Source: Candidatus Delongbacteria bacterium | GTDB taxonomy: Bacteria > UBA4055 | Assembly: GCA_036721445.1 (NCBI GenBank) | Contig: DAIMKZ010000001.1 | Coordinates: forward strand, 1,175 to 65,174 | Length of the DNA: 64,000 nucleotides | Direction of reading: 5' to 3' | Shown here: positions 1-45,277 of the stretch, one piece after another | Layout of the letters: each line of letters starts with the position of its first letter | Position numbering within the stretch: the first letter of the stretch is position 1 | Translations under genes and position numbers: made by a program | Notes under the pieces: model-generated | Databases searched by the model: none | The model's input: only the letters and a program-made list of their open reading frames with translations | What the model was told of the DNA's origin: nothing

Positions 1-405
1 GAATTCAGATACATGTTCAATGTGAATAAAATAGAGCCGGATGTGGATCTTATAAAACTATGCGCCGGAATCAGCAGAAAATTCATTGATTACTCTGTTT
101 CGACAGGGGTCAAAGGTATTGTTGTCGAAGCTTTCGGGCGCGGAAACGTGAACCCTGAAATGAAGGACGGAATACTTGACGCAATCAGCAGGAATATTCC
201 AGTAGTAATAACTTCACGAGTGCCTAACGGAAGGGTGCTGGGTATATACGGATACGAAGGCGGCGCGAAACAGCTTGAAGATAACGGTGCGATCATGGGT
301 TATGACCTTAACAGTGAAAAAGCCAGACTGAAACTGATGGTTCTGCTCGGAATGGGAAAATCTACAGCCGAAATAAGACAGATATTCAAAGATGACAGAG
401 GGTAA
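1..405 (+). CDS. L-asparaginase, C-terminal fragment (5' end lies outside the window)
   Basis: ORF is open to base 1. 'GIVVEAFGRGNV...ITSRVPNGRV' matches the C-terminal domain of type I asparaginase/glutaminase. Confidence 0.65.
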   Translation, partial: EFRYMFNVNKIEPDVDLIKLCAGISRKFIDYSVSTGVKGIVVEAFGRGNVNPEMKDGILDAISRNIPVVITSRVPNGRVLGIYGYEGGAKQLEDNGAIMGYDLNSEKARLKLMVLLGMGKSTAEIRQIFKDDRG

Positions 406-425: not shown

Positions 426-854
426 TTGATGAATAATAAAAAATTCATAAGCATATCTTTATTTGCGTATGCCTTTCTGATCATATTCATTTCTCATCTG
501 CAAATGAATGATTCCGGTCAGGGGTTTATTAAAATAAACGATAAAGTGCTCCACATGTCTGAATATTTTATTCTCGGTATCCTTTCTGTGAGATATATTA
601 TGGTGGTTCTGGGAAAAAAGCCTGCTCAATCTTATTTTCTGACATTCGTTTGCTGCGCATTATTCGCAGTAACGGATGAAATCCATCAGGGATTTGTAGG
701 ATATTTTGATTCAGGAATCTTCGGAGGTATCAGAAATCCTGATCTTTTTGATTTTTTTGCCGATTCATCAGGTATAGCAGTTTCATTATTTGTTATTTAT
801 TTTTACAGAAATTCAAGAAAAAATTCAAAATATATACGGGAACAAAATGACTGA
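426..854 (+). CDS. VanZ-like family membrane protein
   Basis: Four predicted TM segments and a 'TDEIHQGFVGYFDSGIFGG' motif typical of VanZ. Confidence 0.55.
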   Translation: MMNNKKFISISLFAYAFLIIFISHLQMNDSGQGFIKINDKVLHMSEYFILGILSVRYIMVVLGKKPAQSYFLTFVCCALFAVTDEIHQGFVGYFDSGIFGGIRNPDLFDFFADSSGIAVSLFVIYFYRNSRKNSKYIREQND

Positions 855-3819
855 AGAAAAGAAAATTACAAGAATAACCGGCGCATCTGTTTTTATCATC
901 TCAGCGATAATGTATATGATAACAGTAGCTTCTACTACTTCATTCTGGGATTGCGGAGAGTTCATTACTACTTCATATATTCTCGGGATACCCCATCCTC
1001 CCGGAGCGCCTTTTTACCTGATGCTGGGAAGAATATTCTCTATGATACCGATAGTTGGAGATATCGGACTAAGAGTGAATCTGATCTCTGTTTTTTCCAG
1101 CTCGTTTACAGTCCTTTTCCTCTACCTGATATCTGCAAGACTGATTAGAAACTGGCGCGGGAAGACCGAAGATGTTTATGACCTGCTGATAGTGCACGGC
1201 GGATCAGCTATAGGTGCGTTAACTTTCGCATTTACATACACTTTCTGGTTCAACGCTGTCGAAGCAGAGGTTTATGCACTCAGTATGTTCTTCACATCAA
1301 TAATAATATGGCTGACTCTCGTATGGACGGAAAAACATGAAGAAAGCGATTCCTCAAAATTCCTTCTGCTTATCATGCTTCTTGTTGGTCTCGGAACAGG
1401 AGTACATCTCCTAAACATCCTTACTCTACCCGTCAGCATTTTCATCATGTGGTCATATAACAGAAGAACAGCAGTTATTGTAGGAGCCGGGGTAGTCATA
1501 TCGGTAATGGTTCTTTTTGCATTCCCTCTTCACTGGAAAATCTATTCGCTTTTCATTTTCCTGGCGCTTACGCTTTTCTTCAGCAGACTGAAAGACAACG
1601 AAGATATTTCCCTTGCTTTCATTATGCCTCTTCTTCTTATTCTCGGTTATTCAACTTACCTTATGATATATATTAGAGCCGGTCTAAATCCACCTATAAA
1701 TGAGAATGATCCTTCGAACTGGACAAGAATGATGTCATATCTTAACAGGGAACAGTACGGTGATGAGGCCCAGCTTAAGAACGCAATAACTCTGTTCTTC
1801 GGACAACCCAACAGAAAATATCTTGAGTCTCTGGAAAAGATCGGGGCTGTAGCCGGATCTTCTTCTGACCCGTGGGGCGGTCACTGGGCTTTTTTCTGGA
1901 AATACCAGATCGTCGAGATGTATATCAGGTACTTCAACTGGCAGTTCGTCGGTGTGGCGGCGGAGAAATTCAGCAATACTGTTACTCTTAAAGGACTTTA
2001 CGCGATACCATTCCTCGCAGGATTGTGGGGTGCTCTCCACCATTTCTTCAAAGACTGGAAAAAAGCCCTTGCTCTGCTCTTCCTTTTTGTCATAATGAGC
2101 CTCGGTCTTGTAATATATCAGAATCAGGATTTCATGCAGCCCAGAGAGAGAGATTATTTTTATGTCGGGTCATTTTTCATCTTTTCAGTCTGGATAGGAA
2201 TGGGACTTGCCTCGGTACTCGAATCTCTGAAAGAAAAAAACCTCTATAAGCTGATAATCCCCGTTGCTATACTAGGTCTGATCATTCCCGTTTTAGAATT
2301 GAACGCCAATTATTTTCTCTCCAACAGATCGGGAAATTATGTCGCGTGGGACTATTCAAAGAATATCCTCGAAAGCTGCGACGAGAACGGAATTCTTTTT
2401 ACCAACGGCGATAACGATACCTTTCCTGTATGGTATCTTCAGGAAGTTGAAGGAATAAGAACAGATGTTCAGGTGATCAATCTTTCTCTGCTTAACACAG
2501 GCTGGTATATCAGACAGCTTAAGAAAAAGATGCCGGAATACATTAGGTATAGCGAAAAACAAATAGACGAATATTTCGACCAGCATCTCATGACGTCTGA
2601 CGGATTCATGCGCAGATACTGGCCCGAAAAAAAGAAACTTCAGTTGCCTTCTGTAAGCGGAAGCAGCATAGTCGAATGGGAGCTGGGTCCTACGATGCAT
2701 GTAAATATCGGCGGATCGCAGGAGGGTTTTATAAAAATACAGGACCAGATGGTGCTCGAGATAATTGCATATAATGCCCAGATGAACTGGAAAAGACCGG
2801 TATATTTTGCTGTTACTGTTGGAAGCTCGAACTTTATCGGTCTGGATGAGTGGATGAGAATGGACGGTCTCTGCTTCAGAGTAGTTGACTATAAAGCGAA
2901 CAAAGGTATCGATCCTGAAGTTGTTTACGAAAGAGTGCTGGGAAGGTATCTGACCGCATACAGGAATCTTAATAATCCGGATATTTATTACGACGATAAT
3001 ATCATGCGTCTGCTTCAGAATTACAGAAGCGCTTTCATGCAGCTCGCAATATACATAGATGAAAATGACACTCTGAATCATCAACCCGATAAAGAGGTTC
3101 AGGATCTCGTCGCAAATTATAGTTATGATGAATTTAAAAATTTTTCACTTAATGACAAAAAAAGGTATCTCCTTACAAAGATGGAATCGATAATTCCGTC
3201 TTCAGTAATACCTTATTCAAACGAAATGGTAGCTGCGGAGCTAGCGGGAATGTATGCAGATATAGGAGATGAAAAAACCGGAATGGAACTTATAAACAGC
3301 ATCGATCTCGCTTCATTGACCTATAAAAAGCAGACAAGGTTTTTACTGTATCTGATATCAAGGGGGTACGGAAAATCGGCATCCGGTTTACTGGAGAGAG
3401 TTATTGATAACATAGGAAAGCTTTCAGACAGCAAAAGTAAATTTGAACGCTATTTTGAGATCTATGCCGGACTAGTTAAACTTGAAGAAAAAGAATTGAA
3501 GAACACAGTTTCTAAAACCGCTCTGGGCAACATCGAAAAGATAACTGATACGAACTTGAGAAATTCCCTTTTTAAAGAGTTCGCGGTTCTCGCTTATCAG
3601 GGCGGTGATTCTGAATTCGCCGCGGAGGTAATGAACAGATTTATTAAAGAATATCCGGACGATAAAGAGGGGATAGACCTCCTTTACCAGATTTACTACC
3701 TTTCAGGTAATTATTTAAAAGCGCTCGAAACTGCAGATAAATATTTAACCGCTTATCCTGATGATAAGGATTATATTCAGCAGAAAGCCGAACTTGAAAA
3801 ACTTCTTAACAGGAACTGA
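847..3819 (+). CDS. DUF2723 / TMEM260-like GT-C fold membrane glycosyltransferase with C-terminal TPR repeats
   Basis: The likely start is the ATG at 847 (MTEEKK...), not the upstream ORF-track start. N-terminus 'FWDCGEFITTSYILGIPHPPGAPFYLMLGRIF' followed by about 11 TM segments. Soluble C-terminal half has TPR-like repeats (e.g. ...YLKALETADKYLTAYPDDKDY...). Confidence 0.6.
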   Translation: MTEEKKITRITGASVFIISAIMYMITVASTTSFWDCGEFITTSYILGIPHPPGAPFYLMLGRIFSMIPIVGDIGLRVNLISVFSSSFTVLFLYLISARLIRNWRGKTEDVYDLLIVHGGSAIGALTFAFTYTFWFNAVEAEVYALSMFFTSIIIWLTLVWTEKHEESDSSKFLLLIMLLVGLGTGVHLLNILTLPVSIFIMWSYNRRTAVIVGAGVVISVMVLFAFPLHWKIYSLFIFLALTLFFSRLKDNEDISLAFIMPLLLILGYSTYLMIYIRAGLNPPINENDPSNWTRMMSYLNREQYGDEAQLKNAITLFFGQPNRKYLESLEKIGAVAGSSSDPWGGHWAFFWKYQIVEMYIRYFNWQFVGVAAEKFSNTVTLKGLYAIPFLAGLWGALHHFFKDWKKALALLFLFVIMSLGLVIYQNQDFMQPRERDYFYVGSFFIFSVWIGMGLASVLESLKEKNLYKLIIPVAILGLIIPVLELNANYFLSNRSGNYVAWDYSKNILESCDENGILFTNGDNDTFPVWYLQEVEGIRTDVQVINLSLLNTGWYIRQLKKKMPEYIRYSEKQIDEYFDQHLMTSDGFMRRYWPEKKKLQLPSVSGSSIVEWELGPTMHVNIGGSQEGFIKIQDQMVLEIIAYNAQMNWKRPVYFAVTVGSSNFIGLDEWMRMDGLCFRVVDYKANKGIDPEVVYERVLGRYLTAYRNLNNPDIYYDDNIMRLLQNYRSAFMQLAIYIDENDTLNHQPDKEVQDLVANYSYDEFKNFSLNDKKRYLLTKMESIIPSSVIPYSNEMVAAELAGMYADIGDEKTGMELINSIDLASLTYKKQTRFLLYLISRGYGKSASGLLERVIDNIGKLSDSKSKFERYFEIYAGLVKLEEKELKNTVSKTALGNIEKITDTNLRNSLFKEFAVLAYQGGDSEFAAEVMNRFIKEYPDDKEGIDLLYQIYYLSGNYLKALETADKYLTAYPDDKDYIQQKAELEKLLNRN

Positions 3820-4772
3820 TGAGAAAGAATATTTCCAAATACCTGAGGATCGCAGTATCGTTCGTTCTCCTCATCTACCTGTTCTATTATCTTGTGGATT
3901 TTAAAAGCCTTACCGAGATAATTAGAGGATCAAGCCCCAAGTATCTTTTCACAGCAATATTATTTTTTATTTTATCAGTGTTCGCCGCGGCATTCAGATG
4001 GCAGTACGTAGTCACTCTGAAGAACAGTAAATTATCATTCCGATCGTCTCTCCGGGAATATTTTATAGGTATGTTCTTCAACAATTTCCTTCCGGGATCG
4101 GTCGGAGGAGACGTTGTAAGAATAATAGGAGCTGCTGAAGAGATCGGATCAAAAGAGATATCTGTTTCTTCTGTTATTGTTGAAAGACTGATTGGACTTA
4201 TCTCGCTTGTGGCCATAGGTTTGACTGGCATGATATTCTTGAATTTTGATTCGGGATCGGACTTCACGGGAATAAGCATTATTCTGCTCGGCACGCTCAC
4301 AATAATACTTTTCGTACTCATAAACAGGTCCCTTAACAATATTCTCTGCGAGATCATCGAAACATATATCCCGGACAAATTTTCTTCGAATCTTGTTTTA
4401 TACCTCAAGGATTTTTCAGGCTATTCAGAATCGCCCTTCAAATTATTCATAGTTTTTCTGATATCTTTCGCCTTCAAAATACTGGACGGATTTTTTCTTT
4501 ACTTTATATTCAAAAGCCTGGCAATTGATTTAACTTACCCTCACGCCATAGCAATGTTCTCTATAATAAACGTTATTAAAATGATACCTATCTCTCTGAA
4601 CGGCATAGGACTGAGCGCCATATCCTGGGTGATAATTCTTAAAAGCTTCAGCATAGATGAAAATCTTTCAGCTTCCGTCGATTTCCTTACGATAACTATC
4701 TCTCTGCTCGTCAGCGGTATCGGCGGATTACTTTATTTCGCGAAGAACGCCAAAAACCGAAGATCTTACTAG
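3819..4772 (+). CDS. UPF0104 / LPG-synthase-TM (flippase-like) integral membrane protein
   Basis: Eight TM segments with 'FFNNFLPGSVGGDVVR'. Start ATG overlaps the upstream stop (ATGA), suggesting translational coupling. Confidence 0.55.
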   Translation: MRKNISKYLRIAVSFVLLIYLFYYLVDFKSLTEIIRGSSPKYLFTAILFFILSVFAAAFRWQYVVTLKNSKLSFRSSLREYFIGMFFNNFLPGSVGGDVVRIIGAAEEIGSKEISVSSVIVERLIGLISLVAIGLTGMIFLNFDSGSDFTGISIILLGTLTIILFVLINRSLNNILCEIIETYIPDKFSSNLVLYLKDFSGYSESPFKLFIVFLISFAFKILDGFFLYFIFKSLAIDLTYPHAIAMFSIINVIKMIPISLNGIGLSAISWVIILKSFSIDENLSASVDFLTITISLLVSGIGGLLYFAKNAKNRRSY

Positions 4773-7870: not shown

Positions 7871-9139
7871 TCAGAAAAAACCAGTAACTGTAAGAGAGAC
7901 AGAATTGAATATCCCTCCGAATTCTGATCTTTCAGAACTCCCTGCAAATATATCAGTCCCCAGTTTAACAGAAATATTTTCATCGAAAGAATATTCGATC
8001 TCAGGCACGAAAACGGCAGAGCTGTCGTCAATATTACATACTGATACTATCGACAGAATATAATCATTCTTAATTGTGTAAGACATTGCAACTGCGGCGT
8101 AGTTTTGTGCCAGACCCGACATCTCTCCGCCTGTCAGCCTCAGAAAAGAACTGATATCGTAATCTGAACTTTGTCTTTCTCCCAGACCGTTATAATAATA
8201 TTCAGTAAGAAGGTAAAGACCGCTGCCGAAAGTATAATCGAATCCGGTAGTAAGCTGAATGTATGATGAATCAGCGTCCAAAGCCTCCATGCCGTGATAT
8301 CTGGGATTAATGAAAGCTCCTTCGAACCTGTATCCTATCTCATTAAATATCTCACCTGACAGATCCGCACCTATCTGGATCTTTTCGGGTACGCCCAAAA
8401 GCTCACCGTCGTCTGTTTTGTCCCGTATTCCGGAAAAAGAGTATTCAAATCTTCCAGCAGTAGATTTGATCCTGGCTCCGTACTTCCAGTGGTCGAAATC
8501 GCTTCCGGGTGATGTAATTATCTGAAGAGACGAATTATCTCCGAAGAAAAACGCAAGATTGACAGCGAGGACACCTATCTTTGACGCGTCAGGAGCGGTA
8601 GGGTCCTTGATGTTCCAGACATCCGTAGGATTAAAAGCGTATCCTGTTCCCCATGCTATCTGCTGCTTTCCGAATGTGATATCAAAAGAGCTGTAGAATA
8701 GTTTGATTAGGGCTCTGTCGAGCACTATCGTTTCTTTAGGATAAAAAGAGGAGTATGACAGATGATCGAAATATCCTGAAGAATATATCTCAAGCAGCCG
8801 GTCCGCAATGATCCTCTCTTCCATTTCGAGACCGTCATACATTTCCTGATAATACTTATTTATAATTTCCGAATAAATGCTCACATCCTTGAAGGTATGG
8901 AACGGGTCCAGAGGTTTCATATCATATCGGTACAGCAGATGTGATTCGATCTTTCCTCTGTTCTTAATATCGTAATTGCCTTCAAGCCTGAACAATGCGT
9001 TAGACGATGTCACTTCGTTCTTGCCGTCAAAGTAATTTATACTTGACTCGAGATAACCTCCCAGTCTGATTGTCTCATCTGCCTTAGAATGATTAAATAG
9101 AGCTAAGACCGATAATGCAAAGAATAATATTTTCATCAA
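7871..9139 (-). CDS. putative outer-membrane beta-barrel protein
   Basis: Signal peptide (MMKILFFALSVLALFNHSKA), alternating amphipathic beta-strand pattern, and C-terminal '...TGFF' aromatic beta-barrel signature. Confidence 0.5.
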   Translation of the reverse strand: MMKILFFALSVLALFNHSKADETIRLGGYLESSINYFDGKNEVTSSNALFRLEGNYDIKNRGKIESHLLYRYDMKPLDPFHTFKDVSIYSEIINKYYQEMYDGLEMEERIIADRLLEIYSSGYFDHLSYSSFYPKETIVLDRALIKLFYSSFDITFGKQQIAWGTGYAFNPTDVWNIKDPTAPDASKIGVLAVNLAFFFGDNSSLQIITSPGSDFDHWKYGARIKSTAGRFEYSFSGIRDKTDDGELLGVPEKIQIGADLSGEIFNEIGYRFEGAFINPRYHGMEALDADSSYIQLTTGFDYTFGSGLYLLTEYYYNGLGERQSSDYDISSFLRLTGGEMSGLAQNYAAVAMSYTIKNDYILSIVSVCNIDDSSAVFVPEIEYSFDENISVKLGTDIFAGSSERSEFGGIFNSVSLTVTGFF

Positions 9140-9154
9140 TGACTCCTAAGGATA

Positions 9155-9889
9155 TTATCTTTTTAGGTATCTCTCTGTGAACATATCTTCAGGAAGTTCG
9201 ATATCGTACTGAATATCTGAAGTTCGAATTACAGTTCTTGAGTCTTTCAGTATATCCTTCATCACAACTTCCCCGGCTGTCCAGTATCCCTGAACTTTTT
9301 TAATATCTTTTACTGTCAGACTCTTCCACAAATTATCATTTTCATCGTAAAACTCAGCCCCGGAGGCTAGGAAATTAATTTTATCTATCCACATGAAAAA
9401 TCTGCTGTAGCTCTGATCCTTTTCCTTTGCTTTAAATTCGATCTTATAGCAGTCTTTTCCGTCCCTCGCTTCTTCACCGTTCAGGCTATAGTCGTAATCT
9501 TTCCTGTTATCTGACATCGACATATCGTCATATGAGAAATCCGAATTGTTCGCAGACTGTTTCTTCTGATGTGAAGCGATCTTTCTGACCCTGTTGGTCC
9601 TGTTCGAATAGAACCAGATATCGTCACCGTCATTGAGCATAAGCACCTTCATTCCCTGTATCCTTTTCGGCTCGATATATTCCATCAGCATCATCTCATT
9701 ACCGTTCTTTGCATAAGCCTTCATAACAGATGTCCTGACGGTTCCGTCGGCACGGTACACTTCTTCAGTATTGACCGATACCATTGTTATAAAATTTTCA
9801 TTAGCCTCGCTTTTATCAAGGATTTCGTCAACTGTAATTGCCGCACAGCTGACAACAAATCCGCAGAGCATTAAAACATACGCTTTCAT
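9155..9889 (-). CDS. LolA-like outer membrane lipoprotein-sorting family protein
   Basis: Signal peptide, about 240 aa. The family typically sits directly downstream of MMPL/RND exporters, and the start overlaps the MMPL gene stop here. Confidence 0.5.
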   Translation of the reverse strand: MKAYVLMLCGFVVSCAAITVDEILDKSEANENFITMVSVNTEEVYRADGTVRTSVMKAYAKNGNEMMLMEYIEPKRIQGMKVLMLNDGDDIWFYSNRTNRVRKIASHQKKQSANNSDFSYDDMSMSDNRKDYDYSLNGEEARDGKDCYKIEFKAKEKDQSYSRFFMWIDKINFLASGAEFYDENDNLWKSLTVKDIKKVQGYWTAGEVVMKDILKDSRTVIRTSDIQYDIELPEDMFTERYLKR

Positions 9890-12669
9890 TTTTTTCCTCC
9901 GTTTATTCCGATCCTGTCTTTTAAAGAGATCATGGCCGGTAAAAGAAAAGCCGAGCTAATGAAACATGATCCAACACCCAGAACAAGAACTATACCCATG
10001 CTTGCTAGACCTCTATGAGTTGCTATTCCTATGGATCCGAAACTTATCATTGTCGTGAGTGATGTGAGAAGTATTGCCTTACCGGTGAATTTTGTGACTT
10101 TATCTATGGAATTTCTTCCCTCGATCATGTATCTGTGGAGCATGTGTACACCGTCGTCTATGCCTATTCCTATAATAATTGGCAAAGCCATGTAGTTATT
10201 GATATTGAGCTTCATTCCAAAAAGATACATCAGTCCGAGCATCCATACTGAACCGATCGCGAGTGGTACAAGAGCCATAAGAGTGTATTTGAAAGATCTG
10301 AAATCAAGCGTTAGCAGTATTATGATAACTATTGTTCCGAAAAGTATGGACATTGAACCTTTATCTTTCATTATGTCGATAAAGATCAGCATGAGTACGG
10401 GAAGACCGGTTATGTGCTCGTCTATTCTTGAAGTCTGCTCATGGAATCTATTGAGATTCCTCTCCTCCCAGATATTGTTTTTAGGGTAGATAGAAATGAG
10501 AAATCTTCCTGTGTTCTCATTGTAATATCTCTCTTTAATATTCGACGGAAAGGTTTCGAATGATACGATCGTCGTATCAGAGATGTTGTAGAGCAGCTCA
10601 CGGAGTCCGGGCGCATAAGCTTTCTGGAAGGCTGACAGCTTTTCAGCGGCGTCTTCGGTGTTCATGAGCCTGTCGCGGAATTTAAGGATCTTGCTGTCCC
10701 TGTCTTTTTTCCCTGCGATTTCATCGGTTTTAGTTACTATCTTGTTCGACTCTCCCCTGCTCATAACTGAAAGCTCGCCTATCTCAACAAAATTATAGTG
10801 CAGTCTTTCCAGCTCGTCAGCTATTTCTTCCATTTCTTCTGCGTCAACTTCAGGTCTGACCTCAATATTTTTAATTCTGTTTCTGTATTCGGCAAGGAAT
10901 TTCTGATTTTTTCGCTGCTCCTGTTCGGGCTGAAAGAATTCCGACACACATTCAACTCTGCCGATAAGACCTGTTCTGTCAGCAAGTTTTTTGATCTTTG
11001 CGACCTTTGACCTGGCGCTGTCAAGCCCTGTAACAGTGAACATTGCAAAATCAGGCGATATCTCGAATTTATCTATTATCTCGTCCTGGGCGATTATAGC
11101 CGGCATTCCTTCAGGTTCCAGCTTTGTCATATCATATTCATATTCCAGCTTATAAGCACCGTAAACTGAAAGAACTGTCAGGATCAGACTTGCTGTAATA
11201 ACGATAATGATATATGAAGTATGTTTGGATAGTTTTCCTATATTTTCCATAAAATGGAACTGCATGAATTCTGAAACGGCGCGAAATGGTTTAAGTGAAG
11301 CAATTTTGTTAACAGTCTCGTTAAGCGGTTTGATAAGAGGTTTTTTCCTGTTGTCTCTCACAATAAGAGCCGGAAGAAGTACGAACATGGCAGCAAGGGT
11401 CATCATGATTCCTGATCCCATGGCAAATCCCATCTCTCCAAATGCCCTGAAACCCAGGAATATCAGTATAAAAAAGACCATAGCTGTTGTAAGACCTCCC
11501 GTAAGTACTCCGTTGCCTACAGTCTGATACATAGTATCAATAGCCTCTTCGGGGTCTTTGCCGTGATCAAGGGCGTCCCTGTAGCCCGAGAGAAAATGGA
11601 TCGCGAAATCTATTCCGAGTCCGACAAGCATTACTCCGAATGCCGCGGACATAGTGTTCAGGTAGTGAAGGGTTACTGCGAGCAGTCCGGCGACCCAGAT
11701 AATGGAAACAGTAAGAGTTAATATTGAATAAAAGGGAGATTTCCATGACTTGAATGAGCTTATCACAATGAGCATTACGATAAAAAGCGCTGCTACTGTT
11801 GACCATCCGAAATCGTTTACTATCGCCTCCTGCTCCTCATAACCGATTATAGGTGTTCCCGCCAAAGCGAATTCAAGATCGGGAAAACGGTCTTTTATGC
11901 CTGCCATTTCTTCTATTATTATTTCGCACATTATAAGCAGGTTGTCAAAGTCGTCTGTGCTTACAGTAGGCACAATGCTCATAAGGAGCATTTCTCTGTC
12001 TGGTGAGAACATGTATTCATCACCTATAACAAGTTTCGTTGCGCTTTCTTCAGCTTTGACCGTATCCCTGTCAGTCAGGAAAGCGTCGAACGAACTGATG
12101 AAAGCGTAAATATTATTAAGACCGATTACGGCCTGAGCCTCTCCGTCTATTGAGCTCAGATTATCGCTGTCACCCACGAATTCAGATTCGAAATTGTCAT
12201 TTATGTTGGCAAGTATGCCTGCAAAATTCAGATCGGCGTACATTTTTATAAAATTCTTAAGATCTTTGTTTTTCTGGATTATAGCACCATGCTGTCTGAA
12301 AAAATCAACATCCAGTCTGGAATCAACTCTTTTTACAAAATTCACTGTATCGTTTTCAGATATTACTCGAGGTATGAACGCAAACTCTTCAGCGATGATT
12401 TCTGCAGCTTCTATCATCCTTTTCTTATCTTTCGCAGCGCTTTTGATAGTGATCATTATCTGAGCATCGGATGTAAAATCTTCGATTATTCTGTTAAATG
12501 ACTCTACTTGAGGAACATCTGAAGGCATCATATCAGCCAGCTGATTCTTTATTCCCAGGCGCATTGAAAGAAAAAGCTGGAGCACAGTAACACAAATGAT
12601 AAAAAGAATTACCTTCCCGTTATGCCTGATTATAAGTCCGGAAAGTTTTCTGTAGAGTTTCTCTCTCAT
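9886..12669 (-). CDS. MMPL / RND-superfamily exporter
   Basis: Two 5-6 TM bundles each followed by a large periplasmic domain, with 'GIGIDDGVHMLHRY'. The likely start is the ATG at 12669 (MREKLYRK...), 16 nt after the upstream ClC stop. The ORF-track GTG start at 12723 would overlap the ClC gene. Confidence 0.75.
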   Translation of the reverse strand: MREKLYRKLSGLIIRHNGKVILFIICVTVLQLFLSMRLGIKNQLADMMPSDVPQVESFNRIIEDFTSDAQIMITIKSAAKDKKRMIEAAEIIAEEFAFIPRVISENDTVNFVKRVDSRLDVDFFRQHGAIIQKNKDLKNFIKMYADLNFAGILANINDNFESEFVGDSDNLSSIDGEAQAVIGLNNIYAFISSFDAFLTDRDTVKAEESATKLVIGDEYMFSPDREMLLMSIVPTVSTDDFDNLLIMCEIIIEEMAGIKDRFPDLEFALAGTPIIGYEEQEAIVNDFGWSTVAALFIVMLIVISSFKSWKSPFYSILTLTVSIIWVAGLLAVTLHYLNTMSAAFGVMLVGLGIDFAIHFLSGYRDALDHGKDPEEAIDTMYQTVGNGVLTGGLTTAMVFFILIFLGFRAFGEMGFAMGSGIMMTLAAMFVLLPALIVRDNRKKPLIKPLNETVNKIASLKPFRAVSEFMQFHFMENIGKLSKHTSYIIIVITASLILTVLSVYGAYKLEYEYDMTKLEPEGMPAIIAQDEIIDKFEISPDFAMFTVTGLDSARSKVAKIKKLADRTGLIGRVECVSEFFQPEQEQRKNQKFLAEYRNRIKNIEVRPEVDAEEMEEIADELERLHYNFVEIGELSVMSRGESNKIVTKTDEIAGKKDRDSKILKFRDRLMNTEDAAEKLSAFQKAYAPGLRELLYNISDTTIVSFETFPSNIKERYYNENTGRFLISIYPKNNIWEERNLNRFHEQTSRIDEHITGLPVLMLIFIDIMKDKGSMSILFGTIVIIILLTLDFRSFKYTLMALVPLAIGSVWMLGLMYLFGMKLNINNYMALPIIIGIGIDDGVHMLHRYMIEGRNSIDKVTKFTGKAILLTSLTTMISFGSIGIATHRGLASMGIVLVLGVGSCFISSAFLLPAMISLKDRIGINGGKK

Positions 12670-12685
12670 TTTATCTGCCTGAAAT

Positions 12686-14410
12686 TTAAGATTGTACCGC
12701 GCTCTGAGCTCTGATAAGATCACGCAGAGTTACGATTCCTACGATCTTTTCTGACTGCCTGTCCAGAACCGTAAGAACATAAATGTCATATTCTATGAAC
12801 CTGTTGCCGATATCTTTAAGGCTTTCGTCTGAATAACATGTACCTGCCTTGTGTACGGGCGGCATTACTTTATCCTTCAAGGAATTCTGCATTTCTGTTC
12901 TGCCCATGATCCCTTCGAGTTTACCGTCAATTATAAACGGGAATGCTTTGTAAGGATACGATTCGAGGCTGTTCTCGACGGATGAAAGACTCAATTCCGG
13001 AACATAAGCGACTTTCGGATTCATGATTACCGATATCGGAAGATTCTGCCATCCCTGAAGATCTACGGGCGGTTTTATTTTGTGGAATTCGTGGCCGTCC
13101 TGAATAAGCAGAGCTTCATAGAAGTTCATTCCGGAGAATTTTTTCGCAACTGCCTGACTTATTATTATACCTATCATTAATGCGGGCACCAGCTCAAACT
13201 GGTGCGTCATTTCGAAAACTATGAGAACTGATGTCAGAGGCGCGTGAAGCAGACCTCCGAGATACGCGCTCATTCCGACCGCAGCAAGTACAATATGGTC
13301 GGCGGTGGTCAGAGGCAGCCAGATATCGGCAATACCCGCAATAAAGAATCCGCAGAAAGCTCCGATAAAAAGTGACGGAGCGAATATTCCTCCGCAGCCG
13401 CCGAAACTGTAGCTTCCCCATGTTGCGAGCAGTTTTCCCGCAAGCAGTATTCCGGCTATCTGCCAGCCTATCCTGTTGCTCATTGCCTCGGAAAGATCCT
13501 GATATCCTAGACCGAACACACCAATTTTATCAGTTGCCAAATACACCGTGATCCCAATCATCCATGTGATCAGACCTCCGAAAAGCGGGAGCAGCCATCC
13601 GGGTATTTTTTTCTGCTTTTTTAATTTGTAGCGGTATTGAAGAGTAAATTTCTGATACATTGACGCAAGATATGATGCGGCGGCGGCTACAAATGGTACT
13701 ACGGCATAATGGAACCAGCTTATATTCTTGATCGACGGCAGCGAAAATGAAGGCTGCCTTCCCAGGGTGGCAAAAACGACGAACGCACCGACGACCGAAG
13801 ACAGAACTACCCTGCCCAGATATCTGTTGTTAAGATCTCCGACTATCTCTTCGATCACAAAACTGATAGCGGCAAGAGGTGTATTGAAAGCAGCCGCAAG
13901 ACCTGCTGATGCGCCTACAAGATTTGCCGCCCTTTTATTCCTCGGTGAACCTCCGAGCAAACCATCCAGATTCGTCGCAATGCTGCTTCCGATGAAAACG
14001 GAAGGACCCTCCCTGCCGAGACTGTTGCCTCCGCCTATACTGAGAGCGCCTGCAATAAATTTGATTACAGCGGGTCTGATCTTAATATTCCCCATTTGTT
14101 TCCAGTATGAAGACTTAACCTGCGGTATCCCGCTTCCTGCCGCATCAGGGCTCAATACGAACAGTAAAAATCCAACGATAAGCGAGGTTACCGATATCAT
14201 AAGAAAGCTGGCAACGACAAAATATAATTTAGATTCCTCTGCGAAACGAAGGTAAGTAAGAGCGAATATCTTCTTAACCGTGAACATAAACACAACAGCC
14301 GAGAGAGCCGCAGTCATACTGAGTATAAGAGTAACTATTATCGGTCTGGTATTCTCAGGTATCCGCTGCAGGATAGAAGATATGAAATTCTTAAGTTTTC
14401 TATAAGGCAT
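12686..14410 (-). CDS. ClC family voltage-gated chloride channel / H+-Cl- antiporter with C-terminal CBS pair
   Basis: 'GNSLGREGPSVFIGSS' (GxEGP selectivity motif), a second 'GIFAPSLFIGA', and a C-terminal CBS-like domain. Confidence 0.8.
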   Translation of the reverse strand: MPYRKLKNFISSILQRIPENTRPIIVTLILSMTAALSAVVFMFTVKKIFALTYLRFAEESKLYFVVASFLMISVTSLIVGFLLFVLSPDAAGSGIPQVKSSYWKQMGNIKIRPAVIKFIAGALSIGGGNSLGREGPSVFIGSSIATNLDGLLGGSPRNKRAANLVGASAGLAAAFNTPLAAISFVIEEIVGDLNNRYLGRVVLSSVVGAFVVFATLGRQPSFSLPSIKNISWFHYAVVPFVAAAASYLASMYQKFTLQYRYKLKKQKKIPGWLLPLFGGLITWMIGITVYLATDKIGVFGLGYQDLSEAMSNRIGWQIAGILLAGKLLATWGSYSFGGCGGIFAPSLFIGAFCGFFIAGIADIWLPLTTADHIVLAAVGMSAYLGGLLHAPLTSVLIVFEMTHQFELVPALMIGIIISQAVAKKFSGMNFYEALLIQDGHEFHKIKPPVDLQGWQNLPISVIMNPKVAYVPELSLSSVENSLESYPYKAFPFIIDGKLEGIMGRTEMQNSLKDKVMPPVHKAGTCYSDESLKDIGNRFIEYDIYVLTVLDRQSEKIVGIVTLRDLIRAQSAVQS

Positions 14411-20305: not shown

Positions 20306-23300
20306 TTACTTTATCATTATCATTTTCTTGGTCTGAGCATCTTTCCCGACCCTTAAAGTATAATAATAAACGCCGCTCGTCAGCCTCGAACCGTCAAAAT
20401 CTATGCTGTGACTTCCAGCCTGTATCTTCCTGTTCTCCAACTCAGCCACTTTCCTTCCCGTAACATCATACACTGTAAGCGAAACATAACCATCTTCAGC
20501 CAGGTCGTACTCGATCTTAGTCACCGGATTGAACGGATTAGGATAGTTCTGATATAATTTTGATGATTGGGGAATACCATAGTGATCATCAATTCCTGCA
20601 GGGATACCGATAACAGACCTGAAATGATAATTATCATTAGTTTCCTGTGCCCAGTTCCAGTCAGATCCGTTCCATGTCCCCTTGTACGATCTTCCATAAG
20701 CCGTGGTACCTTCTTCATCCGCTGCTTCGAAAACTGAATAAACAGTACCGTAAGGAGCAGAAAAACCAACCCAGAAATCACCGACAACACGAACCCCGTA
20801 TGATGTGTCGATTCCCCTAAGATCAACTAAAGTATATTCCAGATTATTGGCAGGAGTAACATCGAAAGGAACGATCATCTCATCACCGGGCATTCCTCCT
20901 GCATCATCCCAGATATGGATCATCATATTTTCAGAAATGTGCGAAACATCAGAATAATTCCGTACGAGAAAATAAGGCATATAAAATATCAACTTACTTC
21001 CAGGTGTTGACATCCTTACCGCATAAGCATTATTGTCATCCGCTGTCATGTAATAGCTTCCGATTCCCGAGTCATAAATAAGATGATCCCCTGATATATA
21101 GTAATAATAGCCTGCTGAACTTTCCATTTTGTATATAGATGCATCCCTCGCCCATATCCAGTACTTTACAAATGATCCCACTGGCATTGGAGGTATTGAA
21201 AAATTCCATGTATTGCCTTCAACCTTTATCATTTCTGTTTCTTCTACAGGACCGTCGTTAACCTGATAGTAAACTCGTGTTGAATCAATTCCTGAAACAT
21301 CCCATATACTTGCAGAACTGTTGTAAGTTTGCTCATACGAAGGTCCCCGGTAATGAACCGGTCCAATATGATGAATATAAGGGGGGGCCGGTCTTTCTGA
21401 AGTATATAAATTGAGCGTAATATCATCAATATACATACCGTTGACCTCGTAACCTCCGTCAGATTCGAATAAAAATCTGAAAGCAACAGGGCTGTAAGAA
21501 CCGACAAAATTATCTAGATTAAACTTCACTTCATGCCAGCCGACTCCTTCTCCTGTCCATGTTTTCAGTCTGATCCAGGATGTACCTCCGTCATCTGATA
21601 TTTCAAAATGCATGTAATCGAAATCTTCCTCTATATCGTATTTGCACCAGAAGCTCAGATCTGCCCCTAAATATGACGACCAGTCCATAAGCTCAGCCCA
21701 CTGGGCGTAAGATGTATTGTCGGCAGTATAGACGCTGTCAGGACTTTCAGTTAAAGAATGTGTTGCCGAAGTATATGTTCCTTCTTCAAGCCCCCAGTTC
21801 CCTGTCAGTGTCCAGTTACCGGAACCTGATTCGAAATCTTCGAATATCTCAGTATGTCCTCCAAGCCATTGAACCATATAGCTGTCAGTATTTAAAATAT
21901 TTCCTGCCGAATCTCTTATCGTAAACTTTACTTCCCCGTCCAGAACAGCTTCACTCTCCGCAGGTATAATTCCCGAATAAGTATATTCATGGATCTTGGA
22001 AGGGGTCATCTCGAAATCATACTGAGTTACCCAACCGTCCTTGCTGTAGTGTCCGTTACATGAATCTATCGGAGATTCGTCATAAAAAGTCAGAGTCAGA
22101 TACATAGGTGTGTTAACGAAAGCTATTGTACCTTCCAGTTTGGGAGGAGGAGGTGGTGGATCATGATCTTCTTTGAACCAAATCTCATACGGAGCTGTCG
22201 TGGCTGAATTTCCTCCGATATCATACATATCGAACCAGATCTCACCGGCAGTTTCAGCTAACTCGGCAGGAATAGACAGAGTCCAGACATTTTCTCCGGC
22301 ATATACCATATCGGCATCAGCCGGCTCGAACCAGTAAGGGAACTGATAATGAGCTTTGACTGAATCAACTCCCGATTCGTCTGTAACAGTTAGCTCAAGC
22401 TCCATATCGTTGTTCAGATACGCTCCGATAATACCCTGAAGGAAAAGCCAGTCATTCCCTTTGAGCTGAAGCGGGACAGGCGGCAGATAGTCATAATATA
22501 CTTTAACATCGTCTATGAACCACTGGTCACAATAGTTGCCCTGATAATAGAATCCTATCTGAATATCCTGATCTGCGTATTCTTTTAGAGTGAACTTCTT
22601 CTGCTCCCACGGACTGAAGTCGGGCTCTTCTTCAGGAGGGAAACCCTCATAAAGAACATCGTACGTACTGCCGCCGTCAGTTGAAACGACCATTCTGTGC
22701 AGTTCGTAATATGAAGTCCAGTATGAGCTCTGCCAGAAAGAAACGGTACAGAAATTTGCTGCAGGTAGTGATATCACAGGTGACCATATCCAGTCTGCGT
22801 TGTTAACTTCAGTATCCCAGTGGCATAAAACGGCTCCGCCAGAATGAACAAGAGCACCGTCCATAGTTGTCGCTTTAACAAATCCTGAACCTGCAGTATC
22901 CTGAACCCATCCTGCAGGCGGAAAAGTATCTTCAAAGCCTTCGTTGAGCAGAGGCAGGTCTCTTGACCAATTAATCTCGTACTCGTCAGACCATTGAGCG
23001 TTTCCGTAATTGTCTTCCATATAGAATTTTACTAGACCTGTTGTTCCGTGAGGCTGCCCGGGTATTATTCCTGCAAATGTGTAGGTTCCCTTTGACTGAA
23101 CAAGATTAAAGTCAACCCAGCCTCCGCCAATATCATACTGTCCGAGCATAGGGGAAATAACAGTACTCTGTTCTTGAACTTTTAGTATAAGTTCTGCGTC
23201 TCTATCTTCAAAGTTTTCAAGACCGGCTATTTCTCTTAAAATAGGTGGAAATATTTCAGTAGTATTCTCATAATGTGAAAGTGCGAAATCTATAGCCCAT

Positions 23301-23824
23301 TCGAAATAATCTCCGCTGTCCTCAAATACACTCCAAGTTCCTGCGGAACCAGTATAGCTGTGCGTCAATGAAACTACATCAGATGACACCAGTCTTGGAT
23401 TCCCGCCGCTTAGAGGTTCTACGGATACCCAGAAATCATCAGTGAGAATAATATCCGAATCCGGATAAACAATATTGTAAAAGTCATCAGCCGCTGTTCC
23501 GGCTGCCGATTCCCAAAGTAAAGTTATTCCATCTTTGGCGTACACTCTGTATTTGAAGTCGAAACCCGGATCATACAGATAGGAATCTATGGCATGAAGC
23601 TGAACCGGATATTCAAGATCGAAATCATCACAGTTAACCTTTACGGCTCTCTCGGCTTCAACACCCCATACATAAGCATATCCGGGATAGTAGCCGTACC
23701 ACATTGTGTCTTTTGCCGCGATTTCAGGCCTGATATGAGATATTTTTTCTTTTGTACCGTACCATTCAAATGAATGAACGGCCGATAAGATCAATACCAA
23801 TAATAAAAACATCAGCCTTCTCAT
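20306..23824 (-). CDS. large secreted protein with T9SS (Por) C-terminal sorting domain
   Basis: Signal peptide, 1172 aa, internal poly-Pro linker 'DHDPPPPPPK'. C-terminus 'YQNYPNPFNPVTKIEYDL...GVYYYTLRVG' matches the T9SS CTD consensus. Confidence 0.7.
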   Translation of the reverse strand: MRRLMFLLLVLILSAVHSFEWYGTKEKISHIRPEIAAKDTMWYGYYPGYAYVWGVEAERAVKVNCDDFDLEYPVQLHAIDSYLYDPGFDFKYRVYAKDGITLLWESAAGTAADDFYNIVYPDSDIILTDDFWVSVEPLSGGNPRLVSSDVVSLTHSYTGSAGTWSVFEDSGDYFEWAIDFALSHYENTTEIFPPILREIAGLENFEDRDAELILKVQEQSTVISPMLGQYDIGGGWVDFNLVQSKGTYTFAGIIPGQPHGTTGLVKFYMEDNYGNAQWSDEYEINWSRDLPLLNEGFEDTFPPAGWVQDTAGSGFVKATTMDGALVHSGGAVLCHWDTEVNNADWIWSPVISLPAANFCTVSFWQSSYWTSYYELHRMVVSTDGGSTYDVLYEGFPPEEEPDFSPWEQKKFTLKEYADQDIQIGFYYQGNYCDQWFIDDVKVYYDYLPPVPLQLKGNDWLFLQGIIGAYLNNDMELELTVTDESGVDSVKAHYQFPYWFEPADADMVYAGENVWTLSIPAELAETAGEIWFDMYDIGGNSATTAPYEIWFKEDHDPPPPPPKLEGTIAFVNTPMYLTLTFYDESPIDSCNGHYSKDGWVTQYDFEMTPSKIHEYTYSGIIPAESEAVLDGEVKFTIRDSAGNILNTDSYMVQWLGGHTEIFEDFESGSGNWTLTGNWGLEEGTYTSATHSLTESPDSVYTADNTSYAQWAELMDWSSYLGADLSFWCKYDIEEDFDYMHFEISDDGGTSWIRLKTWTGEGVGWHEVKFNLDNFVGSYSPVAFRFLFESDGGYEVNGMYIDDITLNLYTSERPAPPYIHHIGPVHYRGPSYEQTYNSSASIWDVSGIDSTRVYYQVNDGPVEETEMIKVEGNTWNFSIPPMPVGSFVKYWIWARDASIYKMESSAGYYYYISGDHLIYDSGIGSYYMTADDNNAYAVRMSTPGSKLIFYMPYFLVRNYSDVSHISENMMIHIWDDAGGMPGDEMIVPFDVTPANNLEYTLVDLRGIDTSYGVRVVGDFWVGFSAPYGTVYSVFEAADEEGTTAYGRSYKGTWNGSDWNWAQETNDNYHFRSVIGIPAGIDDHYGIPQSSKLYQNYPNPFNPVTKIEYDLAEDGYVSLTVYDVTGRKVAELENRKIQAGSHSIDFDGSRLTSGVYYYTLRVGKDAQTKKMIMIK

Positions 23825-31943: not shown

Positions 31944-32431
31944 GTAATATCCTGAATTTTTTTTAATGTTGAAGTTGTTGATCTGAAAGGAATTAGAGGG
32001 ATGACTGAAACTCTGCCCCCGTTCATCTTCACGATATCGGAACCGACAATATATTTCTTGCTGGAAGGATCTGTTTCATCAGGGTCATAATCGCCGCCTT
32101 TTATAAGAATGTCAGGAACGATGTTTTCAATAAGTCCCAGAGGCGTGTCCGTTCCGAATATGACAGTATAGTCAACCGCTTTCAGAGAATCGATCAAATA
32201 CGCTCTGTCCGACTCACAGTTAACAGGCCTGCCGTCACCTTTAAGTCTTTTTACAGACAGGTCGCTGTTCACACCTACAATGAGTATTTCCCCGAGCTTC
32301 TTCGCGCTGTTAAGATACTCTGCGTGACCTCTGTGAAGGATATCGAAAACCCCGTTCGTAAAAATTATACTTTTCCCGGACTTCCTGAGCTCCGGAACAG
32401 TTTTAAACAGCTCTTTTTCGGACAGTATCAT
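31940..32431 (-). CDS. hldC: D-glycero-beta-D-manno-heptose 1-phosphate adenylyltransferase (stand-alone HldE domain II-like)
   Basis: 'FTNGVFDILHRGH' cytidylyltransferase-fold HxGH motif of RfaE domain II, 163 aa. Confidence 0.7.
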   Translation of the reverse strand: MILSEKELFKTVPELRKSGKSIIFTNGVFDILHRGHAEYLNSAKKLGEILIVGVNSDLSVKRLKGDGRPVNCESDRAYLIDSLKAVDYTVIFGTDTPLGLIENIVPDILIKGGDYDPDETDPSSKKYIVGSDIVKMNGGRVSVIPLIPFRSTTSTLKKIQDIT

Positions 32432-34053: not shown

Positions 34054-34067
34054 AACTTCGCTCCGTA

Positions 34068-35630: not shown

Positions 35631-35705
35631 TTTTCCGCCGTTTATCTTTATATCAGATAAGAATATAATAAATTATAATTGTATTGTCATCATAAATGTT
35701 GAATC

Positions 35706-37615: not shown

Positions 37616-37642
37616 AATCTTTCATCCCTGTTTTTACATAAT

Positions 37643-44060: not shown

Positions 44061-44169
44061 GACTGAATTGTAATCCTATAATAAGGAAAAAGCAATTTCT
44101 AAATATAAAGTTTGATAAAAACGAATTAATAAAATAAATTACAGGATAATTTGAAAGACGGGAGTGCCG

Positions 44170-45267: not shown

Positions 45268-45277
45268 TGAGGCTGTT

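Follow-up and report, generated by a model that had tools for sequence, protein, structure and literature searches.

A TMEM260-like glycosyltransferase in a conserved three-gene membrane operon of Candidatus Delongbacteria, a candidate periplasmic protein glycosylation system

Introduction

The human protein TMEM260 (CAZy GT117; PDB 9RQL/9RQM/9RQN) is an O-mannosyltransferase of the ER that acts on the IPT domains of proteins, and its catalytic arrangement has been described as a ‘split active site’. Activity is abolished by the D52A mutation and by substitutions of H67, while D441, which lies beside the acceptor threonine, is the catalytic base, and the D441A variant is inactive (bioRxiv 10.64898/2026.03.17.711096). 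No characterised bacterial GT117 member is described in the literature searched, in agreement with an earlier note on the DNA considered here, which was made from the sequence alone.

Bacterial three-component glycosylation systems, namely GtrA/GtrB/Gtr*, CsbB/GtcA/YfhO and ArnC/ArnEF/ArnT, follow a shared logic wherein a cytoplasmic GT2 enzyme charges polyprenyl phosphate with a sugar, the product is flipped by a small membrane protein, and a periplasmic-facing GT-C enzyme transfers the sugar. Their acceptors are O-antigen, teichoic acids or lipid A. In archaea, a gene neighbourhood has been described that comprises arCOG00563 (a PMT/STT3-like GT-C), arCOG00899 (UPF0104) and an AglD-like GT2, with the UPF0104 protein assigned, by prediction only, the role of flippase in a glycosylation pathway (Makarova et al. 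2015, PMC5898192). The cargoes characterised or predicted for UPF0104 proteins are modified phospholipids and glycolipids (Lys-PG, with GlcN-PG predicted), and no member of the family is known to flip polyprenyl-phosphate sugars.

Results

The window is the whole 64,000-nucleotide stretch of contig DAIMKZ010000001.1 that was analysed; the features given below with their coordinates lie on its forward (+) strand. Downstream of the 3′ part of an L-asparaginase gene (13..405; PF17763, E 1.7e-35), and separated from it by a 20 nt gap, is a gene for a small VanZ-like membrane protein of 141-142 amino acids (426..854), the first of a conserved triad. This protein scores exactly at the cut-off against Pfam VanZ (30.1 bits) and well above it against NCBIfam vanZ_1 (48.1 bits, cut-off 20). 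The second gene encodes a TMEM260/DUF2723 (GT117) GT-C glycosyltransferase (847..3819; 990 amino acids from ATG847, a length backed by homologues of 988-992 amino acids), and the third encodes a UPF0104/LPG_synthase_TM protein (PplT, COG0392; 3819..4772; 317 amino acids). Their homologues number in the thousands, and they are genuine genes rather than chance open reading frames. The VanZ-like gene does precede the GT-C gene as the earlier note had it, and its stop codon (852-854) lies past ATG847, giving an 8-nt overlap. The note had also described translational coupling of the GT-C and UPF0104 genes through ATGA. An overlap is indeed present, but the junction reads TGATG, with one nucleotide common to the stop codon TGA (3817-3819) and the start codon ATG (3819-3821).

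The GT-C protein matches Pfam PF11028 (TMEM260-like) with E 2.7e-60 (203.6 bits, cut-off 24.2). It also matches the human TMEM260 chain 9RQL in a region that takes in the sugar-recognition motif as well as the beginning of the luminal domain (single sequence, E 2.8e-18; profile, E 4.4e-27). No match was found to the PMT, PMT_2 or ArnT-type Pfam models. The family is very large and already catalogued, with about 4,000 clusters at 50% identity for E<=1e-30. Hydropathy and an AlphaFold model together give a membrane core of around 11 helices (residues 1-492), and the model then shows a periplasmic α/β Rossmann-like domain (about residues 499-710) and a tail of TPR-like helical repeats (2995..3813, residues 717-989). 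Pfam TPR_14 and TPR_6 match the single sequence weakly (E about 1e-3). The tail is clear in the family profile, where positions from about 800 to 980 match consensus TPR proteins with E down to 1e-39 and the TPR domains of OGT and SPINDLY, LapB and BcsC are also matched, and in the AlphaFold model, with 12 helices from 793 to 989. The family, the number of TM helices and the TPR tail are thus all as the earlier note had read them. A Foldseek search with the full model, in libraries without the solved TMEM260 structure, gave PglB and AglB as best matches, with low TM-scores to PglB (0.27/0.38).

Residue conservation was counted over 91 full-length GT-C relatives from about 90 loci. The first periplasmic loop carries the motif W-D35-C-G-E38-F...H50-P-P-G (949..1005), which corresponds to the sugar-recognition motif of TMEM260 (D52, H67); it belongs to the FWDCGEF..GIPHPPGAPFY segment located at residues 33-57. 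D35 is found in 91/91 relatives, and E38 and H50 in 90/91 each. A second motif, N-G-D522-N-D-T-F-P (2404..2427), lies at the start of the α/β domain, and G521, D522, N523, D524 and T525 are each conserved in 91/91. Residue-by-residue alignment to 9RQL pairs D35 with D52, H50 with H67, E141 with E144 and D522 with D441, and these four residues of the bacterial protein are conserved in 85-91 of the 91 relatives. A TM region with its end near residue 279 is followed by a loop of about 130 residues, many of them invariant, including the segment Y298-L-N-R301-E-Q-Y304-G305 (1738..1761), wherein R301, Q303 and Y304 are each present in 90/91 and G305 in 91/91. This segment may correspond to the donor-loading loop of TMEM260 (R264-x-x-Y267), an assignment that stays tentative because the region gave no sequence alignment to 9RQL. 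R277 (1675..1677; 90/91) is an alternative candidate. The same alignment mapped no counterpart of TMEM260 R264, Y267 or R355.

The third protein matches PF03706 (LPG_synthase_TM; E 5.4e-40) and TIGR00374 ‘flippase-like domain’ (76.5 bits, cut-off 43.2), and has 8 TM helices by hydropathy and model. Its AlphaFold2 model (pLDDT 91.6) was searched against the PDB with Foldseek; the six best matches were all MprF, with TM-scores of 0.59-0.66 over the whole query, and beyond these the probability was 0.2 or less. These data uphold its description as a flippase-like UPF0104 partner. MprF was not detected in the PDB using the single sequence or a homologue profile. Membership of the HpnL subfamily was ruled out (28.6 bits vs 195.65).

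We see that the VanZ-GT-C-UPF0104 order is kept in 6/6 distinct Delongbacteria-clade loci (the window, L002/L003, L004, L089, L090 and L091), where GT-C identity is 51-77%. The VanZ-like gene is directly upstream of the GT-C gene in every locus of the clade examined, and an asparaginase gene stands upstream of the triad in all six. The downstream flank has been swapped four times across these loci, and the GT-C/UPF0104 adjacency persists. UPF0104 and/or GT2 genes also follow the GT-C gene in KSB1, Calditrichota and Marinimicrobia relatives. In the super-clade of 34 GT-Cs from Delongbacteria/KSB1/Calditrichota/Marinimicrobia in an NJ tree, UPF0104 is found within two genes of 14/34 and GT2 of 18/34, with both at three loci; the clusters also encode a 238-aa AglJ/PpgS/ArnC-like GT2. 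For most family members (Bacteroidota, Chlorobi, Ignavibacteria, Rhodothermales) neither a UPF0104 nor a GT2 neighbour is present, and the pairing is clade-specific. The earlier note was prepared to drop its proposal if the pair were not co-conserved or if catalytic DE/DD residues were absent on alignment. The pair is co-conserved across the Delongbacteria clade and recurs in related phyla, and the D-x-x-E motif (D35, E38) is present with further TMEM260 catalytic residues, so the proposal stands on both points. Sequence divergence is uneven, as the window and L004 share 54% identity for GT-C and 33% for UPF0104, which diverges much faster. UPF0104 proteins beside GT-Cs of other phyla are 23-26% identical to that of the window; unrelated members from Bacillus or Chloroflexi are at least as close to it.

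The window encodes a single suitable GT2 (45278..46159; 293 amino acids; PF00535, E 7e-29). It has the GtrB/ArnC/DPMS-type build of a cytoplasmic GT-A domain and two C-terminal TM helices (about 215-249 and 261-279), and its best NCBIfam matches (AglJ, PpgS, Dol-P-hexose transferase, PgfS and ArnC) are all polyprenyl or dolichyl-phosphate glycosyltransferases, all under their cut-offs. The gene lies 41 kb downstream of the operon; its neighbours encode a DegT aminotransferase and a WecB-like epimerase, the DegT/WecB/ABC cluster around it looks unrelated, and no link to the operon was found in the window. The complete donor-flippase-transferase unit that had been suggested is not supported by this arrangement. 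Other envelope genes of the window include a GT9 heptosyltransferase, HldE-like enzymes and a CDP-alcohol phosphatidyltransferase/GT4 cluster. The human IPT-type sequon occurs in no protein encoded within the window.

Discussion

We propose the three-gene membrane operon as a candidate periplasmic protein glycosylation system, in which a TMEM260-like split-site GT-C would glycosylate an exported protein and the UPF0104 protein would act in the same pathway; we see the prospects of this reading as evenly balanced. The core of the GT-C would bind a polyprenyl-phosphate-linked monosaccharide at the periplasmic face via D35 and H50, the TPR repeats, presumed to be acceptor-recruiting ‘fingers’, and the α/β domain would grip an extended exported polypeptide, and D522 would deprotonate a Ser/Thr hydroxyl that attacks the sugar with inversion. 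The UPF0104 protein would most likely bring the lipid-linked donor across from the cytoplasmic leaflet to the periplasmic one, after its synthesis by a GtrB/ArnC-type GT2 such as that at 45278..46159, and the VanZ-like protein may be a third, clade-specific membrane partner. The data establish the family, the conserved catalytic residues, the fold, the order of domains and the linkage of the genes, and from these we infer the monosaccharide donor, the protein acceptor, the UPF0104 cargo and any physical complex. Mannose as donor and protein as acceptor are pure extrapolation from a human enzyme of about 20% identity, because the literature searched holds no characterised bacterial relative.

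The bacterial GT-C shares with TMEM260 its PF11028 domain, the order of GT-C core, α/β domain and TPR, and the D52/H67/E144/D441 equivalents. It differs in being longer (990 vs 707 amino acids), with an extended TPR tail and the loop of about 130 residues, in that its lipid carrier would be of the undecaprenyl type, not dolichyl, and in belonging to an operon that also includes UPF0104 and VanZ-like genes and is without a eukaryotic counterpart. Unlike TMTC1-4 (GT105) and the fungal/bacterial PMTs (GT39), it lacks a PMT or PMT_2 sequence match, and its catalytic base would sit in a separate α/β domain, a TMEM260-specific feature. As in the archaeal neighbourhood, the GT-C is genomically tied to UPF0104, with AglJ/AglD-like GT2s added in related bacterial clusters; there, however, the GT-C is PMT/STT3-like and the host belongs to another domain of life, and AglD combines the UPF0104 module and the GT2 in one fused protein. 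The UPF0104 protein resembles the MprF flippase domain and stand-alone members (PplT/YbhN, GpgF, HpnL) in Pfam family and predicted fold, but lacks the aminoacyl-PG synthase domain of MprF. The proposed logic would be that of the three-component systems, from which the locus differs in having an MprF-type rather than GtrA or SMR flippase candidate, a GT2 outside the operon, and peptide-binding-type domains on the GT-C.

Those domains bear on an ArnT-like reading, in which the GT-C would glycosylate lipid A, LPS core, a membrane glycolipid or an envelope glycan instead of protein, with UPF0104 flipping the lipid donor or lipid acceptor. The lipid cargoes of UPF0104 proteins point this way, as do lpxA, which adjoins the GT-C gene in Chlorobi, the LPS-core and other envelope genes of the window, and the action of VanZ proteins at the membrane surface (PMC7146870). 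We nonetheless find it rather unlikely, given that D522, the catalytic-base equivalent, is invariant in a soluble α/β domain followed by the TPR tail, that these elements grip peptide in TMEM260, and that ArnT-type, PMT and PMT_2 matches are lacking. En bloc transfer to proteins of a glycan already assembled on undecaprenyl-diphosphate, as by PglB/PglL, would make the GT-C the missing transferase of FCB-type general O-glycosylation, and the Bacteroidetes O-oligosaccharyltransferase was stated to be unknown in 2022 (PMC8729774). PglB and AglB are the best structural matches, and GT-C genes of KSB1, Ignavibacteria and Chitinophagaceae have genes for cytoplasmic glycan-building enzymes beside them (GT4, a 345-aa MftF/rhamnosyltransferase-like GT2, SAM methyltransferases and an RmlD-like reductase). 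However, the PglB TM-scores are low, the closest characterised homologue takes a monophosphate-linked single mannose and its modification is unextended, and no Wzx-type flippase or initiating phosphoglycosyltransferase adjoins the GT-C in the window, which leaves this reading very doubtful.

It is also conceivable that the GT-C is a glycosyltransferase to which UPF0104 and the VanZ-like protein are linked by synteny alone, serving general membrane-lipid homeostasis. UPF0104 proteins are near-ubiquitous and mostly stand-alone, and a role as general lipid translocases has been proposed for them; that of the window diverges faster than its GT-C and is as near to generic members as to other GT-C-linked ones, and the asparaginase is kept in the same block without an obvious functional link. 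Set against this are the adjacency that outlasts four replacements of the downstream flank, the overlapping stop and start codons, the recurrence of UPF0104 and polyprenyl-phosphate-sugar-synthase-like GT2 genes beside GT-Cs in other phyla, and the same GT-C/UPF0104/GT2 neighbourhood in archaea, and we judge a lack of cooperation quite improbable.

The combination of a UPF0104 flippase with a PMT/STT3-like GT-C and a GT2 is not a new idea, having been predicted for archaea in 2015 (PMC5898192). In the periplasmic protein glycosylation proposed here, the Delongbacteria operon and a GT2 would together constitute a three-component glycosylation system in which UPF0104 replaces GtrA or ArnE/F.

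Gene arrangement

The window opens with four co-directional genes that together take up its first 4.8 kb. An L-asparaginase gene, of which the 3' part is present (13..405), is followed by genes for a VanZ-like membrane protein (426..854), for the 990-aa candidate glycosyltransferase, here called the GT-C (847..3819), and for a flippase-like UPF0104 protein of 317 aa (3819..4772). The stop of the VanZ-like gene overlaps the GT-C start codon (ATG847) by 8 nt. As the TGA of the GT-C gene (3817-3819) ends at the base where the UPF0104 ATG begins, these two genes overlap by one base and the junction reads TGATG, not ATGA as the earlier note had it. The next gene, encoding a PilT-like ATPase, is convergent with the UPF0104 gene and has its stop codon (4769..4771) inside the last four UPF0104 bases. 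The best-named homologues come from MAGs of Candidatus Delongbacteria, in which the GT-C counterpart is 87% identical. Scanning for promoters and terminators produced no more hits than shuffled controls did, and no tRNA or Rfam features were found.

Family assignment and candidate active site of the GT-C

The GT-C matches the Pfam model PF11028 (TMEM260-like) over residues 35-204 with 203.6 bits against a cut-off of 24.2 (E 2.7e-60), and PF28495 (TMEM260_2) is likewise given as a precomputed annotation for the identical protein. Human TMEM260 is the founding member of CAZy family GT117, and its authors mention 'distant homologs in bacteria' (PMC10214176). Cryo-EM divides the human protein into a GT-C 'wrist' with 11 TM helices, a Rossmann-like 'palm' in the lumen and 'fingers' made of TPRs (2026 preprint, 10.64898/2026.03.17.711096). 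Its donor-binding residues are D52 and H67 in the sugar-recognition motif, R264 and Y267 in the donor-loading loop, and R355, while the palm contributes D441, the catalytic base beside the acceptor threonine (10.64898/2026.03.17.711096).

Direct sequence comparison matched the window GT-C to the human TMEM260 chain 9RQL with E 2.8e-18, and a 56-sequence family profile gave E 4.4e-27. In the HMMER alignments, D35, H50, E141 and D522 correspond to D52, H67, E144 and D441 of 9RQL, respectively. D35 and H50 thus correspond to the sugar-recognition Asp/His pair of the first extracytoplasmic loop, and D522, found in an NGDNDTFP motif, aligns with the base in the soluble Rossmann-like domain, which in the human protein sits in the sequence RGD441. 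Conservation was counted over 91 full-length relatives from about 90 loci: D35 and D522 are retained in 91/91, E38 and H50 in 90/91 each, and E141 in 85/91. The stretch of TMEM260 containing R264, Y267 and R355 was not aligned to the GT-C by phmmer or by profile searching of the PDB, even when a sub-region served as the query. Within the unaligned region there are invariant candidates for R264/Y267 (R277, or R301-x-x-Y304) and for R355 (R435 in a PRERDY motif); because this region fails to align with 9RQL, we do not assert that any specific residues are equivalent.

An AlphaFold2 model built from a 56-sequence alignment was confident (pLDDT 86.6, pTM 0.83). In this model the membrane helices extend to residue ~492, residues 499-710 form a mixed alpha/beta domain, and residues 717-989 fold into helical repeats. 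Profile positions ~800-980 match consensus TPR proteins as well as TPR domains from OGT, SPINDLY, LapB and BcsC. Hydropathy and the basic N-terminus are compatible with an N-in, C-out topology, and these sequence features would fit a periplasmic location for the D35/H50 loop and the entire 500-residue tail. The predicted architecture is that of human TMEM260, with a core of about 11 TM helices, an alpha/beta domain and a TPR region, all extracytoplasmic beyond the last TM helix.

We also see that GT-C homologues from Bacteroidia (P0241-P0360; loci L080-L087) carry a different precomputed C-terminal domain, PF28497, and are given no TPR model, which points to another kind of acceptor-recognition module in these members.

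The UPF0104 and VanZ-like partners

The downstream partner had been described earlier as a putative flippase of the LPG-synthase-TM type, and this description holds up well. It matches PF03706 with 138.2 bits against 33.4 (E 5.4e-40, model positions 3-295 of 302) and TIGR00374 ('flippase-like domain') with 76.5 bits against 43.2. The score for TIGR03476, the model for the hopanoid-associated UPF0104 subfamily HpnL, was 28.6 bits, below its cut-off of 195.65. In a Foldseek search with the AlphaFold model (pLDDT 91.6), ranks 1-6 were all MprF structures (7duw, 6lvf, 7f47, 9j8q, 9j8s and 9goe), with TM-scores of 0.59-0.66 normalised to the whole query; probability collapses past rank 6. MprF entries in the PDB were missed by the single sequence and by a homologue sequence profile alike. 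On the strength of the model, the protein is assigned as a predicted stand-alone MprF-type flippase-like domain (UPF0104, PplT, COG0392). A cargo is established for MprF alone in this family (Lys-/Ala-PG), and for other members there is prediction only. The upstream VanZ-like protein scores 48.1 bits against 20 for NCBIfam NF037970 and is borderline for Pfam PF04892 (30.1 bits against 30.1).

Conservation of the gene block

Six distinct Delongbacteria-clade loci were compared (the window, L002/L003, L004, L089, L090 and L091), among which GT-C identity to the window is 51-77%. The order asparaginase-VanZ-GT-C-UPF0104 is found in all six, with one extra gene after the asparaginase in three of them, and the downstream flank varies between PilT-like, ParA-like, unknown and methyltransferase genes. 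A block encoding a porin-like protein, a LolA-like/DUF1329 protein and a 945-aa MMPL/RND transporter (7871..12723, minus strand) is also kept in the relative L002.

A scan of species-representative genomes added 80 further GT-C loci across the FCB group, for which neighbours were classed with iterated HMMs and a neighbour-joining (NJ) tree of the GT-Cs was calculated. In a super-clade comprising Delongbacteria, KSB1, Calditrichota, Marinimicrobia, LCP-89 and relatives, a partner gene nearly always lies directly downstream of the GT-C: UPF0104 at 14 of the 34 tips and a 345-aa GT2 at 18, with both present in L010, L012 and L021. Neither UPF0104 nor GT2 was found beside the GT-C in the loci scanned from the Bacteroidota, Chlorobi, Ignavibacteria, Rhodothermales and Balneolales branches, where the GT-C lies among housekeeping genes or beside genes for a methyltransferase and a GT4. 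The GT-C/UPF0104 pairing is therefore real and recurrent, yet clade-specific; the co-conservation that the earlier note had raised as a check holds in all six Delongbacteria-clade loci compared but does not extend to the Bacteroidota, Chlorobi and Ignavibacteria branches.

In Chlorobi, Chitinophagaceae and Ignavibacteria the GT-C is preceded by a 375-aa gene that was considered as a GT4 partner but is actually a HemW/HemN-like radical SAM housekeeping gene; a GT4 immediately upstream was found in five KSB1-type loci only. KSB1-type clusters usually also hold genes for a DUF4837 lipoprotein, purE, an RmlD-like reductase and a 238-aa GT2. The DUF4837 gene directly follows the GT-C partner gene (L007:9636-10748 and L006:10845-11894), with equivalents in L005, L008-L011, L013, L014, L016 and L019-L021 and none in the window. 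As their signal peptide is followed by a Cys, the products are predicted lipoproteins, and might serve the glycosyltransferase either as accessory factor or as acceptor. Paralogous GT-C copies, in tandem or nearby, were seen in L010 (551, 3279), L011 (4254, 6980), L019 (4256, 7001), L069 and L005 (2438, 5971), and in these pairs the UPF0104 or GT2 gene comes after the downstream copy only.

Donor-synthase candidates

No polyprenyl-phosphate GT2 is encoded within the GT-C operon, and neither gene adjacent to the GT-C (UPF0104 downstream, VanZ-like upstream) matches a small flippase of the GtrA or ArnE/F type. The sole GT2 of the right architecture in the window (45278..46159) has a GT-A domain and two C-terminal TM helices, and its top NCBIfam matches are all polyprenyl- or dolichyl-phosphate sugar synthases, every one under cut-off. 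It lies 41 kb from the operon amid genes for a DegT-type aminotransferase, a WecB-like epimerase and an ABC-2 transporter, and nothing was found to link it to the GT-C operon. Of the complete glycosylation unit suggested in the earlier note, the polyprenol-phosphate-synthase-like GT2 is present in the window, but nothing ties this distant gene to the other components. The consecutive genes at 44164..49256 (plus strand), for a DegT/PseC-like aminotransferase, this GtrB/ArnC-type GT2, a WecB-like UDP-GlcNAc 2-epimerase and an ABC-2 permease and ATPase, look like an amino-sugar lipid-carrier and export cluster of their own.

In KSB1-type relatives, the 238-aa GT2 is encoded 4-5 genes downstream of the GT-C, and its best NCBIfam matches are the polyprenyl-phosphate glycosyltransferases AglJ, PpgS, PgfS and ArnC. 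The 345-aa GT2 was rejected as a GtrB-like donor synthase, being nearest to MftF, rhamnosyltransferase and GlfT1-type GT2s (NCBIfam) and having no clear C-terminal TM helices. Judging by these matches, the 238-aa GT2, not the 345-aa one, is the candidate donor synthase of KSB1-type clusters.

Proposed mechanism and alternatives

The reading best supported by our analysis, which we hold at about even confidence, is that the window GT-C has a split active site like that of TMEM260. A polyprenyl-phosphate sugar would dock in the membrane core, the TPR and alpha/beta domains would grip an extended peptide, and D522 would serve as base, with the flipped donor provided by UPF0104. Here the donor and acceptor of the GT-C and the lipid flipped by UPF0104 are all three inferred. 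Three-component systems (Gtr, YfhO and Arn) follow the same logic as the proposed GT2/flippase/GT-C scheme. A matching logic is also seen in the archaeal neighbourhood of UPF0104, a PMT/STT3-like GT-C and an AglD-like GT2 that was predicted in 2015 (PMC5898192).

The GT-C could instead be ArnT-like and act on a lipid or glycan acceptor, which we regard as unlikely. Its resemblance to ArnT (GT83), as to PMT (GT39), is confined to the fold level, and in Pfam at E<=0.01 only PF11028 and weak TPR models were matched, with no match to other GT-C models including PMT, PMT_2 and the ArnT type. Transfer of an oligosaccharide en bloc by the GT-C is very unlikely. It is also unlikely that the association of the GT-C with its UPF0104 and VanZ-like neighbours reflects synteny alone. 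The gene order recurs across the Delongbacteria clade; the GT-C-adjacent UPF0104 proteins of other phyla share 23-26% identity with that of the window and are no nearer to it than generic Bacillus or Chloroflexi members, so cross-phylum orthology of the GT-C-linked UPF0104 proteins is unsupported and a shared origin of the pair is not demonstrable.

Other envelope genes in the window

A gene at 50809..51717 (plus strand) encodes a DUF368/VCA0040-like protein (Pfam 'undecaprenyl phosphate translocase-like', E 2.5e-82), a candidate for the carrier-recycling flippase needed downstream of any periplasmic GT-C reaction. An envelope/lipid run at 31940..39739 (minus strand) includes a cytidylyltransferase-like gene and a PfkB kinase (split HldE-like), a HAD phosphatase, an unusually long CDP-alcohol phosphatidyltransferase of 520 aa, a GT4, a 262-aa protein without a Pfam match, DUF445, a SAM methyltransferase and an inositol monophosphatase, and may be an inositol-phospholipid or glycolipid cluster. 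Together with a GT9 heptosyltransferase (53884..54888, minus strand), the HldE-like genes indicate a heptose-containing LPS core in the source organism. A 1172-aa protein (20306..23824, minus strand) combines an InhA-like MAM domain with a T9SS C-terminal sorting domain, from which it follows that the organism uses type IX secretion. The cargo of type IX secretion comprises typical FCB surface glycoproteins.

Family distribution and significance

At E<=1e-30, the GT117 family comprises 4,040 clusters at 50% identity and spans Bacteroidota, Chlorobiota, Ignavibacteria, KSB1, Calditrichota, Marinimicrobia and Delongbacteria. The bacterial family is already labelled TMEM260-like in databases, so that what is new in the window is one clade-specific operon variant, VanZ-GT-C-UPF0104, and not a new kind of system. 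No experimentally characterised bacterial GT117/DUF2723 member is described in the literature searched. A Bacteroidia-profile search for members from cultured Bacteroides, Porphyromonas and Tannerella gave MAG proteins only among the best 120 matches listed. The species-representative scan did find GT-C homologues in cultured Chlorobaculum sp. 24CR, Prosthecochloris ethylica and Rufibacter roseolus, which makes the window operon a reasonable experimental entry point.

A far broader proposal, which we consider very unlikely, is that bacterial GT117 proteins across the FCB group are dedicated periplasmic protein O-glycosyltransferases, with MprF-type UPF0104 proteins as an unrecognised class of polyprenyl-phosphate-sugar flippases. 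The GT117 proteins would then be either the missing initiating/transferring enzyme of FCB-type general O-glycosylation or enzymes that glycosylate a conserved A/B-strand sequon of bacterial IPT/TIG-like surface domains, as prokaryotic ancestors of the metazoan TMEM260-plexin/MET pathway. The human IPT-type sequon had no match among the window ORFs, a 64-kb sample that is uninformative on this point.

The window operon itself raises the specific idea that some UPF0104 proteins flip lipid-linked sugars. If GT117 enzymes do glycosylate exported proteins, they would represent a widespread bacterial route of O-glycosylation, and would also offer an evolutionary origin for the human disease gene TMEM260 (SHDRA syndrome).
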